A DNA stretch of 29,859 bases, from positions 1 through 29,859 of the forward strand of contig JBGAGQ010000075.1 of assembly GCA_044226625.1 (NCBI GenBank), given 5' to 3'. The translations under genes and the position numbers were made by a program. The stretch comes from Thermoanaerobaculia bacterium (GTDB lineage: Bacteria > Acidobacteriota > Thermoanaerobaculia > Multivoradales > UBA5704). Below the pieces are notes generated by a model. That model saw only the letters and a list, made by a program, of their open reading frames with translations. It did no database searches and was not told where the DNA came from. Positions within the stretch are counted from its first letter, which is position 1. Each line of letters begins with the position of its first letter. Below are positions 15,462 through 22,007 of this stretch, in pieces.

Positions 15462-15656
15462 TTAGTTTGCGTGGGTGCACCCCGAAGCTACGCAGCTCGG
15501 GCCGTTCGTTTGGCTGCAGTCCAGCGTGCAGGGGCAGGTGGCGAAAGTTCCCCCGCAACCGGCGGTCAATGCGCCGGCCACGCGAGTGAAGTTCGCATCG
15601 CTCAAGAGCACCAAGGTCTCTTTTCCGAGTTGAAGTTTCTTTCCGTTCCTTTTCAA
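15462..15656 (-). CDS. RiPP (lanthipeptide-like) precursor peptide
   Basis: SD GGAGGAGG before TTG; leader KKLQLGKETLVLL..VAGA; 35-aa core with 6 Cys, 6 Thr, 3 Ser. Confidence 0.8.
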   Translation of the reverse strand: MKRNGKKLQLGKETLVLLSDANFTRVAGALTAGCGGTFATCPCTLDCSQTNGPSCVASGCTHAN

Positions 15657-15722: not shown

Positions 15723-16043
15723 TCACTTTCCCTTTGCCAGAACCGGCACGGCCCCCGCACAGGGAGAGCCGCCGATTGCCAGGTTCGCGCTCTGCTCGGT
15801 ACCGCCCCAGGTGCTCAGGTTCTCGTTGCACTGCCCCGTGTCGCCGCAGGTGCCGGACACGATCTCCCCCCAGCAGCCGCCGCCATATTCCCAGAGCCCC
15901 GGGCCGCCGCGCCCCTCGACGCAGTGCTCGCAGGTCCACCAGCAGGGGTAATACGCCTGGCAGAGCCCGCAAGGCTCGGCCGAGGCAGCTTGAGCCAACA
16001 AGAATGCCACGCCCACGATCACTCCCACGCACAGCTTCTTCAT
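15723..16043 (-). CDS. Small secreted Cys/Gly/Trp-rich protein
   Basis: Purine-rich SD (GAGAGG), signal peptide ending ASA, 9 Cys in the mature part (CxxC-x5-C-x3-CxxC...TCG..G.C). Confidence 0.75.
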   Translation of the reverse strand: MKKLCVGVIVGVAFLLAQAASAEPCGLCQAYYPCWWTCEHCVEGRGGPGLWEYGGGCWGEIVSGTCGDTGQCNENLSTWGGTEQSANLAIGGSPCAGAVPVLAKGK

Positions 16044-16157: not shown

Positions 16158-16192
16158 AAAAAGAAAGGGGTGAGGCCCGCGACGCCTCACCC
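16158..16192 (-). terminator. Rho-independent terminator
   Basis: Minus strand GGGTGAGGC-N7-GCCTCACCC followed by CTTTCTTTTT. Confidence 0.8.
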
Positions 16193-16296: not shown

Positions 16297-16659
16297 TTAC
16301 GACTGCGCCGGAAGGGGCTTCGACTTCGACTTCCGGCCGCGCTTCGAGCGGTGTTCGGACCGGATGTTGAAGGACTCGATCATCGGGTTGTCGAAGCCAT
16401 ACTTCGCTCGCACGACGGCCGCGAGCTGGCGCAGCGCGATGCTCGCCTCCCGGTTCCGGTCTTGGCGAACGACGACCGCGTCGGTCAACTGACCGCGCAG
16501 CGCCTGCACGTTCTCCTGGGAAGCCCGGAGCGCCTCGACCCGCTGCCGCACGTCGGCGACATAGGTTTCGGCGCCCGGAATGTTGGGCAGCTCGGGCGCG
16601 AGGCTCTGCAGCGTGAGCTCGCAACGGTTGATCTTGTCGGCGAAACTGGTGTCTTTCAT
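16297..16659 (-). CDS. Hypothetical alpha-helical/coiled-coil protein with basic C-terminal tail
   Basis: SD AAGGAG before the ATG at 16659; amphipathic helices, VRAKYGFDNP motif, tail RSKRGRKSKSK. Confidence 0.8.
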   Translation of the reverse strand: MKDTSFADKINRCELTLQSLAPELPNIPGAETYVADVRQRVEALRASQENVQALRGQLTDAVVVRQDRNREASIALRQLAAVVRAKYGFDNPMIESFNIRSEHRSKRGRKSKSKPLPAQS

Positions 16660-16769
16660 GGCGTGACTCCTTGGTTGTGAGGCGGGACGCGTCATGCGGC
16701 CCGGTACGACTTTGTTTTGATCGGTTCGATTCTCACGTCGAATGTCAGCCCAGATCCGAACGGTGGTCC

Positions 16770-17040
16770 ACGGGGTTTTCCGGACGAGCGGAGCGCTTTT
16801 CTCAGCGCCGAATTCGCTTTGCGGAGGAAAACCTCGTGTTCTCGTCGAGCTGAGGGGTTTTCTCGTCCAGCGAAGGGGTTTTCGCGGAGAGCCGAGAGGT
16901 CTTCCCAAACGGAAAACCCCTCGCGCCCCTCGCGAAACCCCTTGGCCGGTCGCCCCGCGGCTTCCGCGGTCCCGAAAACGAATTCGGCGTTCAGAAAAGC
17001 GCTCCGCTCGGTGAGCCGAGCGAATTCGGCATCCGAAGAA
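16770..17040. repeat. Degenerate 21-bp-periodic array folded into a ~226-bp imperfect palindrome
   Basis: 16785-16816 vs 16979-17010 inverted, 30/32 identical; inner pairs 16853-60/16935-42 and 16874-83/16912-21 share the same centre (16897.5). Confidence 0.8.
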
Positions 17041-17462
17041 CCCATCGCGGCACCCGAGCGCTGGAGTCTCGAGGTCATCCGGAAGGAGAGCGCGATCGTC
17101 GCGTCGTTCATCACGGGAGAAACCCTACAGAACGAGACGATGCGATTTCCAGTGCGTTTTCGAGCATAGGCCCTTTGCTCGTTTTTGCCCTGGATTTGCC
17201 ACGACGCTTTCGTGTAGGCTTCGCAGCTTTTCAAATCGGGCCTGGCAATGAGCGATTCGGCGCCGCCGTCGCGGGCCGTCCGGACGCCAAAGTGAACGGC
17301 CGTCGGGGCTTGCGCCGTCGCCTCGGTGACGAAGAGGAGAGCAGGCCTCCGCCCGCCGAGGCTGCAAATCCGGTCGGAGCCAAGCTCTGCGCCACAAAAA
17401 GCTCAGAATATTTCGAAGACGGGAAGGGGCCGCCGACCGCCCGGTCAGGCACAACTCAGTTC

Positions 17463-18153: not shown

Positions 18154-18462
18154 TCAGCACCGCCGGCGAGGATTCGGGATCTCACAGTGGCAGAGGCAGG
18201 CGAGTGTGCTCTGACAGACCGAAACACACGGCGCCGGTCCGCAGTCACACTTGGCCACGCACTGGGCCAAGGTGCAGGAAGTTGCGAAGAATAGCGATTC
18301 GGCCGGCGGCAGGTCGGCCGGGGTGAGAGTTGCCAAGAATCCAACCAGCTCGGAAGTGGCCTGTGAGGTCTTGGGCAGAGCCGGAGGTGCGGCCTGAAGA
18401 GTTGAGCCGACGGCCGCCAGGATGCTCAGAAGGCAGAAGACGCAAACCCAATGCTTTTTCAT
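18154..18462 (-). CDS. Small secreted pre-pro-peptide with a 10-Cys core (defensin-like spacing)
   Basis: SD GGGAGG; signal peptide (..LQA), Pro/Ala/Thr linker, core SCTLAQCVAKCDCGPAPCVSVCQSTLACLCHCEIPNPRRRC. Confidence 0.75.
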   Translation of the reverse strand: MKKHWVCVFCLLSILAAVGSTLQAAPPALPKTSQATSELVGFLATLTPADLPPAESLFFATSCTLAQCVAKCDCGPAPCVSVCQSTLACLCHCEIPNPRRRC

Positions 18463-18523
18463 GAGCGTGATCCTCCCGAAGATTTCTGGTAGCACCAGCG
18501 CCGGTGTTCTCATCGCCGCCGAG

Positions 18524-18623
18524 TGGCGGAAGCGCATGGGAATCGAACCCACCCCCGACGCCGAAACCGGCGCCGGACAACGGTTTTGAAGACCGCAGAA
18601 GGCACCAGCCCCCGAGCGCTTCC
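18524..18623 (-). tRNA. selC: tRNA-Sec (anticodon UCA)
   Basis: 8-bp acceptor stem GGAAGCGC/GCGCTTCC, G73-CCA, 6-bp D stem with TGGT loop, anticodon loop CTTCAAA, long variable arm, T loop TTCGATT; 100 nt. Confidence 0.95.
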
Positions 18624-21564: not shown

Positions 21565-22007
21565 GTCGCCCCGGCGACGGGGCGGCGGTTCAGGATGGGT
21601 CGGGCCTTCAGCCCTTGGAAACTAGATCGCCGCTTCTTCCTAGGGCGTTGCCCTAGGCTATTATGGGTCGCGCCTTTGGCGCTAAATATTTGGTTTCAAA
21701 GGGCCAAGGGCCCGAGGCAGTAGCAACGTCTCAGGCGACTGGCGCCAACCTGGGCTCGACGGGGGCGTTCTCGGCCCGCAGGGTCGCTCCGGCGACCGGG
21801 CGGTGGTTCGGATGGGGCGGGCTTTCAGCCCTTGGACATCGAGAACGGCGCTTGTTCCTAGGGCGTTGCCCTAGGCTATTAAGGGCCGCGCCTTTGGCGC
21901 TAAGCATCTGGTTTTAAAGGGCCAAAGGCCCGACGCAATAATAGCCTGGGGCAACGCCCCAGGCTATCGAGCCAACCTCACGGGAAGGGCTGAAGGCCCG
22001 CCCTATA
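21565..22007. repeat. Cluster of three-hairpin REP-like elements (two direct copies, one inverted copy, one fragment)
   Basis: ~155-bp direct repeat with 218-bp period (21565/21783). Each unit has GGGC..TCAGCCC, CCTAGGGCGTTGCCCTAGG and GCGCCTTTGGCGC hairpins. 21919-22006 is an inverted copy of 21812-21900. Confidence 0.85.

Follow-up and report, generated by a model that had tools for sequence, protein, structure and literature searches.

What is a long palindromic stretch with a 21-bp period doing directly upstream of a gene for a small helical protein? This question is raised by one locus of the window, i.e., the whole stretch of 29,859 nucleotides that was analysed. The best explanation we can offer is that the palindrome in the window is a copy of a cognate module, composed of a protein and its array. 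The distribution of gene and array within and between genomes points to an undescribed protein family paired with private repetitive DNA; within the terms searched, no paper on 20/21-bp arrays or on this protein family was found. The features of the locus are collected in Table 1.

Table 1. Features in and around the gene and its upstream element (positions refer to the window).
Feature	Position	Strand	Details and basis
Intrinsic-terminator-like hairpin and T-run behind the gene	16168..16192	-	9 pairs, 7 of them G-C; tail CTTTCTTTTT
Family gene, 120 aa, all-helical with basic disordered tail	16297..16659	-	ORF, translation, homologs, AF2 model
Shine-Dalgarno-like AAGGAG	16668..16673	-	8 nt before the ATG (ATG at 16659)
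Non-coding element, ~280 bp	16760..17040	.	~13 units x 21 bp; inverted symmetry about 16897/16898
Outer arms of the element	16785-16825 / 16970-17010		41 nt, 88% identity, inverted
Promoter-like extended -10 (TGTAGGGT)	17122..17129	-	putative; alignment of 9 orthologous upstream regions
Conserved box with short hairpin flanked by T-runs	17145..17231	.	stem 17161-17166 / 17176-17181

The window protein carries a VRAKYGFDNP motif and a Lys/Arg tail. Its translation and AF2 model agree with the earlier note on this DNA, which had described a helical protein of 120 aa with a VRAKYG.D.P motif and such a tail. In the model (pLDDT 85.6), helices span residues 6-26, 30-87 (58 residues), 92-97, and 102-107, such that a long coiled-coil helix is combined with a disordered Lys/Arg tail. 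Homologs of 118-122 aa are annotated as "hypothetical proteins" in metagenome bins of Thermoanaerobaculia/Acidobacteriota. Pfam gave no family for the window protein at E <= 1, and no relative of the protein family was found in Pfam, PDB sequences, PHROGs, PADLOC, or NCBIfam. Foldseek searches of the model against the PDB returned no match at E <= 0.001, a wide fold search with VIA only generic coiled coils (Z <= 6), and a scan of 25 family members at E <= 10 neither a transposase family nor PF05635. In the ESM Atlas, unnamed Acidobacteriota clusters were hit, with DUF6261 (0.76) as a lead only. The window protein shows no recognisable DNA-binding motif; judged from the model, the 58-residue helix with its basic tail would make a plausible oligomerising nucleic-acid binder.

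The same note had likened the protein to a widespread uncharacterised family, and in this point it has to be corrected, as the family was found in one bacterial family only. A sequence-cluster search with the window protein yielded 15 representatives at E <= 0.001 among 1.84 billion. The family profile detects 3-42 copies in 23 of 24 other genomes of the same bacterial (Acidobacteriota) family and none in 16 genomes from other families of the order. Within the bacterial family, one genus lacks the gene in all six genomes tested. The genome of the window itself (G000, 6.6 Mb, 133 contigs) holds 19 paralogs according to an iterated profile search over all ORFs.

Upstream of the gene, the 60 nt nearest to the ATG are kept in all nine orthologous loci. 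The box holding the TGTAGGGT -10 is conserved in orthologs both with and without the element, and similar TGTAGGGT/TATGGT sequences occur in boxes upstream of other paralogs; a strict sigma-70 scan gave no site. If the TGTAGGGT promoter is used, the element would sit in a leader of ~455 nt. The second box (17145..17231) is 80% identical to a box upstream of the paralog at C123:4573, and orthologs show a different hairpin at its position; it may represent the terminator of the neighbouring gene or the site of a regulator. A possible sigma-54 promoter, read by eye in the 17190 box, was dropped because it is not kept in the C123 paralog.

The element is set apart from random sequence by both its symmetry and its period. 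Its arms at 16785-16816 and 16979-17010 are inverted and identical at 30 of 32 positions. About the centre at 16897.5, the two 115-nt halves agree without indels at 64 positions, compared with 30.5 +/- 5.2 matches (maximum 45) in 500 dinucleotide shuffles. Identity at lag 21 within 16760-17040 amounts to 0.446 (z 6.2 versus 500 dinucleotide shuffles); the maximum of the shuffles across lags 2 to 69 is 0.384, and none of the 500 attains the observed value. Lags 42 and 61 reach z 4.4 and z 5.8, and a direct-repeat family, D1, shows spacings of 61, 21, and 21 bp. The palindrome and its 21-bp period are thus real, above shuffled controls. This holds for the arms, the centre, and the period as first described, including the lag-21 autocorrelation, for which a comparison with shuffled controls had been proposed. 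The recurrence at 42 bp described there was recovered as well, in the form of CGAATTCGGC at 16979 and 17021. Its pairing of inner blocks about a common centre stood in part: some GGGGTTTTC/GAAAACCCC blocks pair about 16897.5, others about centres ~10 bp off. Further motifs of the element are TTTTCTGA / TCAGAAAA and CGCCGAATTCG. Four DNA runs compared over the element differ by SNPs only, with contigs breaking in the repeat and no indels in steps of 21 bp. The array is traversed by at least four open frames: 16297-16908(-), 16692-17234(-), 16717-17169(+), and 16742-17014(+). Their translations are of low complexity and without Pfam match at E <= 1, in line with the earlier reading that none is a normal protein.

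The suggestion that the array acts with the adjacent protein had come with two proposals, a search of this genome for paralogous units of gene and array, and a check of the flanks of homologs for periodicity. Both were positive. An array was counted when it was at least 60 bp long, belonged to the 20/21-bp period class, and lay within 500 bp of a gene. Upstream arrays were found at 13 of 19 family genes versus 44 of 3496 other genes (odds ratio 170, Fisher p 3e-20), and downstream arrays at 0 of 19 versus 83 of 3496; six of the 19 paralogs have no upstream array. According to TRF, the arrays upstream of the paralogs have a period of 20, 21, or multiples thereof (42, 63, 84, 126), each with a different unit sequence, and many sister arrays of the window element show periods of 20, 40, or 80. 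In sum, this genome contains about 20 units of a small gene with its own 20/21-base repeat array. Among 28 loci from other genomes, TRF reported a 20/21-class array upstream in 13 and downstream in one; in a further four of the 28, a window-type element missed by TRF was found by alignment. Including the loci of the C125/C13 subfamilies (5 of 8 with array), an array lies upstream in 22 of 36 loci (28 + 8) of other genomes, again on the 5' side. As 13 of 19 paralogs and 22 of 36 loci elsewhere carry an upstream array, joint action of array and adjacent protein is supported.

Each paralog lineage has unit types of its own, and these persist from species to species. GGAAGTC(A/G)CTTCC units at 20 bp precede the gene both of the C125 protein and of a relative with 80% identity in G003, while GATAGCCGCTATC units accompany the sister C13 subfamily in five genomes. 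The cores of the two differ at the mirror positions 2/12, 3/11, and 6/8; their CCAG...CC(A/G)G linkers are alike. Members of the C11 clade in this genome, G001, and G006 have GAAATCGA(A/T)TT-type units in common. In the window clade, the window-type element occurs at six of nine loci, and the remaining three are cleanly without it, with one CCGAGCTCG unit left. It should be kept in mind that shared flanks between orthologs are predicted by linkage alone. Within this genome, the 14 gene-linked arrays are all of different types, most of which, under looser clustering, also occur as gene-less arrays. The abundant types GTCCCGTATTCTGGA, GATCCCGCGCGAAGGA, and GGAATCGTTTTTTAAC have no linked family gene here. 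A permutation test for one type per paralog, comprising the six linked arrays with strict solo relatives, was not significant (P = 0.23). Concerning specificity residues, a comparison of the C125 and C13 subfamilies was uninformative, with only ~8 fixed differences.

The window-type element is dispersed in its own right. Gene-less copies are located at C119:3772-3999, C132:60640-60898, and C36:9096-9330, and six of eight genomes of the genus contain the element, with 1 to 11 matches each; in G005 and G006, which are without it, there is no window-clade gene among the matches listed. An alignment of 13 copies, drawn from six genomes, spans ~280 bp with hardly any indels (76% mean column identity); the copies have diverged to 66-71% identity with the window copy, but length and phase are kept. 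In this alignment, an A/T tract recurs every 21 bp, and TTTTCTGA motifs of the left half mirror TCAGAAAA motifs of the right half. The convergent spacer filled by the C36 copy measures ~6 bp and ~90 bp, respectively, in two congeners; no target-site duplication was recognisable between the filled and the empty site. The window element had initially been set apart from REP sequences. This distinction is valid for its structure but not for its distribution, which is REP-like, with copies scattered over intergenic DNA, also where the gene is absent.

A third of the family genes are preceded by a gene for a DCoH/PCD-like protein. In this genome, all six genes of one DCoH/PCD-like subfamily lie directly upstream of a family gene and on the same strand. 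The gap amounts to 69-74 bp without and 414-601 bp with an array in between, the latter being the case in four of the six pairs. In other genomes, 14 of the 36 loci have a DCoH-like gene upstream, always on the same strand; in ten of these 14 the gap exceeds 400 bp, and six of the ten hold an array detected by TRF. The window gene has no DCoH-like neighbour. Foldseek matches the DCoH-like protein to PCD/DCoH structures (E 4.6e-5 to 1e-3, TM 0.66-0.85; PDB 1f93 among the matches), while its sequence scores are 25.8 bits against a cut-off of 26 for Pfam Pterin_4a and 21 bits against 80 for NCBIfam NF002017. PCD/DCoH enzymes carry the catalytic histidine motif HHP...H, and none of the six aligned DCoH-like proteins of this genome has the His-His-Pro motif. 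They thus appear to be proteins of the PCD/DCoH fold that are catalytically dead by motif loss, and may act as partners of the family protein.

The 5' polarity, the recurrence with unrelated units, the conserved pairing, and the phyletic pattern together argue that array and protein work together. As to how, we tentatively favor the reading, quite possible though short of probable, that each protein is a putative binder of its own helically phased array on DNA. The unit would then be monocistronic, consisting of a promoter-like box, a ~455-nt leader with the 21-bp-phased array, the gene, and a terminator, and its product would be a small coiled-coil protein with a basic tail. This protein would oligomerise along its own array on double-stranded DNA, where units two helical turns apart would place all sites on one face of the helix. 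The gene-proximal array could serve as an autoregulatory operator, a roadblock, or a loading site, and gene-less arrays of matching type could offer additional sites for binding or derive as copies from the array at the gene. Paralogs would have diverged jointly with their unit sequence, and in a third of the units the co-encoded, catalytically dead DCoH/PCD-like protein would be a possible partner. Binding along a phased DNA array appears the most likely mode because the period equals two helical turns regardless of the unit sequence; it is further favored by the fact that copies tolerate no indels and that in some cores the palindrome is perfect up to the centre. The generic coiled-coil fold, the palindromic units being non-universal, the six paralogs without array, and the small share (11 of 96) of long arrays beside a family gene count against binding, as do the effect of linkage, the non-significant permutation test, the abundant types without linked gene, and the few residues by which the C125 and C13 subfamilies differ. 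Against an operator role in particular counts the preference of solo arrays for convergent spacers.

The solo arrays give room to a rival explanation, according to which the protein is uninvolved and minisatellite-like 20/21-bp arrays are spread by slippage, recombination, or a trans-acting factor. Their location would then reflect a permissive or fragile spacer ahead of family genes, or a joint duplication of gene and spacer. TRF reports 964 arrays in this genome, most often with a period of 21 (216 arrays), and next with 18 (86) and 20 (83). Merging of the 20/21 class resulted in 297 loci, 96 of them at least 100 bp long; the class is impure and includes two CRISPR-like arrays on C121 as well as some coding repeats. 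A rough gene map based on GC3 places 87 of the 96 long arrays between genes. Only 11 of the 96 adjoin a family gene, yet this is the largest group of neighbours, and no second small protein family was found among 31 small neighbours of solo arrays. A total of some 300 arrays, most of them gene-less, is what a passive satellite would leave behind. The same applies to the preference for convergent spacers, known from REP/MITE-type repeats: 71 arrays with both neighbours known comprise 25 convergent, 12 divergent, and 34 tandem cases, whereas 15.9, 13.9, and 41.2 are expected from spacer length (p 0.03). Being enriched in convergent spacers, the solo arrays do not behave as promoter operators. 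Type abundances are species-specific, with 56 occurrences of the two-unit GGAAGTSACTTCC pattern in this genome, three and one in two genomes of the same genus, and none in 58 other genomes of the bacterial family. Arrays have homogenised centres and degenerate edges, both filled and empty sites occur at orthologous positions, and the one-to-one test mentioned above was not significant; all of this would fit the satellite as well.

It is hard, however, to obtain a 170-fold enrichment with strict 5' polarity (13 of 19 versus 0 of 19) from permissiveness, and the association recurs in distant genera with unrelated unit sequences. Furthermore, where the gene family is missing, as in one genus of the same bacterial family, the sampled genomes have few arrays. 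In the presence of the gene family, arrays of at least 100 bp reach 14.5 per Mb in this genome (counted as a whole) and 33.3, 20.0, and 20.0 per Mb in three genomes of other genera; in its absence, the values are 3.6 and 2.8 (two genomes of the genus lacking the family) and 6.7 (a genome of another bacterial family). Sampled genomes without the gene family hence have 2-12 times fewer long arrays, on the basis of seven genomes that are not independent of each other, all but this one covered by evenly spaced samples of 280-360 kb. Both the spread without the protein and the location by permissive spacers or joint duplication are, in our judgement, unlikely.

The second rival transfers the action to RNA. 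The array would be part of the transcript, either in the leader of the gene or in a spacer between the DCoH-like and the family gene, and form a structured RNA whose hairpin or hairpins attenuate transcription, block the ribosome-binding site, or set mRNA stability, possibly with the protein bound. In favor of this, the element is flanked by the conserved promoter-like box on one side and the Shine-Dalgarno sequence on the other, and the arrays between DCoH-like and family genes, both in this genome and in the long gaps of other genomes, would equally be transcribed. On the gene strand, hairpin-plus-U-run motifs are present in the element. On either strand, the predicted fold of the window copy is much more stable than that of shuffled sequences (-154.7 and -163.6 kcal/mol, z -6.8 and -8.8), but these z-scores are not diagnostic, given that stable folding is expected of every palindrome. 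Across the 13 copies, RNAalifold pairs only the sequence-conserved outer arms, and the covariation term contributes -0.3 of -27.9 kcal/mol. Because covariation is limited to this value, we attribute the strong single folds to the palindrome rather than to a selected RNA structure; the long structured RNA that had been offered as an option in the earlier note thus receives little support.

Palindrome centres speak to both sides of this question. Among 24 gene-linked arrays, seven contain three or more palindromes with a 0-1-nt centre, eight have only hairpin-compatible centres of 3-8 nt, and nine have few palindromes. The idea that units are always palindromes of 0-1-nt centre, and hence act as DNA and not RNA, fails in general across these arrays: palindromes with 0-1-nt centres show no overall enrichment in gene-linked arrays, and those with 3-7-nt centres, as RNA hairpins would have, are 2-2.7 times enriched. 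In several types, on the other hand, the units are perfect palindromes of 0-1-nt centre with co-variation at the innermost mirror positions, where a hairpin would impose no constraint. Solo copies in convergent spacers occur in either orientation, which likewise tells against RNA. At gathering score, Rfam 15 yields three matches in the window (tRNA-Sec and two Acido-Lenti-1), none of them within 16297-17240. Taken as a whole, the RNA model seems improbable to us.

A third rival assumes a dependence as between REPINs and RAYTs, such that each array type relies for its copying, expansion, or maintenance on its own protein, which may act by itself or together with the DCoH-like partner. Among described systems, REPIN-RAYT comes nearest in its logic; Bertels and Rainey (2011; PMC3116915) describe a different REPIN cluster beside each RAYT. 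By that account, the likeness consists in the presence, within one genome, of several repeat families that are scattered between genes and have one cluster each next to a single-copy gene of their own, in species-specific repeat populations, and in an apparent co-divergence of gene and repeat (PMC3116915). Dispersed extragenic palindromic repeats with one cluster per cognate gene are indeed found here; each linked array is a distinct type with solo copies in the same genome, expansions are species-specific, and gene family and arrays co-occur across genomes. The repeat architecture differs, with tandem 20/21-bp units or a 280-bp phased palindrome in place of the paired ~20-nt REP hairpins of that study, and the array is located on the 5' side only. 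In contrast to the IS200-like HUH tyrosine transposase described there, the gene here encodes a 120-aa coiled coil; an adjacent transposase of this kind was found neither by Pfam, nor among 25 family members, nor in the all-helical model, and nuclease or recombinase folds or families are likewise absent from these results. No target-site duplication or defined ends were seen. Five GGAAGT-type copies have ~220 bp of left flank, including the end of the neighbouring gene, and ~40 bp of right flank in common, which looks like segmental duplication rather than transposition. Such a dependence of the arrays on the protein is very doubtful. Somewhat more room, though still with the weight leaning against it, may be given to a transposase-free counterpart of REPIN-RAYT systems, a kind of bacterial satellite DNA coupled to proteins. 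Here each paralogous protein, partly with a dead DCoH-like cofactor in the manner of HNF1-DCoH, would nucleate on, maintain, and expand its own 20/21-bp array with a unit length of two turns, and the arrays would form a lineage-specific layer of chromosome organisation or co-evolving selfish pairs.

That the array is a coding heptad repeat, i.e., a CDS such as 16692-17234 on the minus strand, which had been named as the alternative that would overturn the first reading, or an N-terminal extension of the 120-aa protein, has a negligible chance: 21 bp equal seven codons and at least four frames are open, but it is ruled out by sister arrays with periods of 20, 40, and 80 and by homologs of 118-122 aa that start at the conserved ATG (16659) after AAGGAG, besides the low-complexity translations without Pfam family, the three orthologs lacking the whole element, and the symmetry of the units on both strands.

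Under the favored reading of a protein binding its own DNA array, plasmid systems offer parallels in layout. In iteron/Rep and parC/ParR systems (R1, pSK41), tandem units of ~20 bp lie directly upstream of a gene for a ~120-aa protein; the iteron/ParR-type proteins bind cooperatively and repress their own promoter, with units spaced in helical phase. The array and gene described here share the ~20-bp tandem units and the position upstream of a ~120-aa gene. They differ in being chromosomal, with 3-42 paralogs per genome and many gene-less arrays, and the predicted fold shows no ribbon-helix-helix. Around the window gene, neither the ORFs nor the Pfam matches revealed a ParM/ParA or Rep partner. 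In the type III toxin-antitoxin system ToxIN, tandem direct repeats of 34-36 nt units immediately precede a small gene within one transcription unit. The array is similarly placed immediately 5' of a small gene here; its units, however, measure 20-21 nt, and arrays also occur without a gene. For three family members, PADLOC gave no match to a ToxN/AbiQ-type protein at E <= 0.01, and the model is helical. A further parallel concerns the neighbour, since the dimerisation domain of HNF1 pairs with DCoH as a cofactor. Along this line, a DCoH-fold protein is co-encoded here with a helical, probably dimerising protein and possible symmetric DNA sites. Unlike HNF1-DCoH, the pairing is confined to a third of the units, the window gene not among them; the catalytic histidines are missing from the bacterial protein, and the interaction is putative.

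Repeats such as REP, BIME, MIRU, or heptamer arrays abound between bacterial genes, and for the majority neither a function nor a protein that acts with them is known. In the present case, a whole set of repeat families can be matched, family by family, with the paralogs of one undescribed protein family of one bacterial lineage, which provides about 20 natural protein/array pairs per genome for testing whether and how a protein specifies a tandem repeat. If the binding is true, the proteins would form a new family of nucleic-acid-binding folds in which changes of specificity can be read off (GGAAGTSACTTCC vs GATAGCSGCTATC in sister proteins), the 20/21-bp period would be explained, and the arrays would correspond, in bacteria, to satellite DNA that has binding proteins of its own. 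The DCoH-like protein, non-catalytic and conserved in its pairing, would be a further, bacterial example of DCoH acting as a cofactor.

Two minor observations concern repeats of other kinds. The element was already held not to be a CRISPR, and this reading is borne out by its abutting units, which leave only 7-8 variable linker bases and no unique spacers; two true CRISPR-like arrays elsewhere in the genome (C121:99455 and C121:101931) look unlike it. Finally, the only PF05635 gene of the genome, which is not a member of the protein family, lies between ATP-synthase genes at C14:6121-6429 and is flanked by short GAATGGCGA-type repeats.

Genes for proteins of the pterin-4a-carbinolamine dehydratase (DCoH/PCD) fold recur beside the family gene, which encodes a coiled-coil protein of about 120 aa and has 19 paralogs in the window's own genome (G000). 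The proteins form a subfamily without the catalytic histidines (motif HHP...H), and in G000 each of the six genes lies immediately 5' of a family gene and shares its strand. The same arrangement was found at 14 of the 36 family-gene loci in other genomes.

Coordinates of the features discussed (C, contig of G000)
Feature	Location	Strand	Remarks
DCoH/PCD-fold subfamily gene	C46:21717-22094
DCoH/PCD-fold subfamily gene	C125:66613-66948
DCoH/PCD-fold subfamily gene	C57:6393-6710
DCoH/PCD-fold subfamily gene	C13:6319-6645
DCoH/PCD-fold subfamily gene	C109:47897-48223
DCoH/PCD-fold subfamily gene	C76:30686-31000
GGAAGTSACTTCC array	C121:32141-32381
GGAAGTSACTTCC array	C126:45048-45237
GGAAGTSACTTCC array	C44:5278-5498
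GGAAGTSACTTCC array	C14:76625-76885
GGAAGTSACTTCC array	C84:184926-185211
Abundant array, example	C29:5498-5732		no linked family gene
Abundant array, example	C33:47972-48322		no linked family gene
Abundant array, example	C81:84042-84316		no linked family gene
CRISPR-like array	C121:99455-99618		period 60-63
CRISPR-like array	C121:101931-102281		period 60-63
PF05635 gene	C14:6121-6429		sole one in G000
tRNA-Sec gene	window 18528-18623	-	RF01852 (Rfam), 70.9 bits
Acido-Lenti-1 RNA motif, copy 1	window 21639-21683	+	44.2 bits (gathering score 37)
Acido-Lenti-1 RNA motif, copy 2	window 21857-21901	+	42 bits (gathering score 37)
Small Cys-rich ORF	window 15462-15656	-	no Pfam match
Small Cys-rich ORF	window 15723-16043	-	no Pfam match
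Small Cys-rich ORF	window 18154-18552	-	no Pfam match

Three abundant array types of G000, GTCCCGTATTCTGGA, GATCCCGCGCGAAGGA and GGAATCGTTTTTTAAC, are non-palindromic, and none is linked to a family gene within this genome. Five GGAAGTSACTTCC arrays have flanks in common, about 220 bp on the left and about 40 bp on the right. By eye, the left flank resembles the 3' terminus of a restriction-modification gene; the C121 array lies just 5' of an hsdM-like start, likewise identified by eye. Owing to their period, the class of 20/21-bp tandem arrays also takes in two arrays that look like CRISPRs, with repeats ending in GGATTGAAAC. Short inverted repeats of the GAATGGCGA type border the gene for the 23S rRNA intervening-sequence protein (PF05635), which is flanked on both sides by ATP-synthase genes.

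Within the window, the two Acido-Lenti-1 motifs are spaced 218 bp apart and both exceed the gathering threshold. One of the three small Cys-rich ORFs (64 aa) combines a leader-like N-terminus (KLQLGKETLVLLSD) with a Cys/Thr/Gly-rich core and resembles a modified-peptide precursor; the remaining two have signal-peptide-like N-terminal starts.
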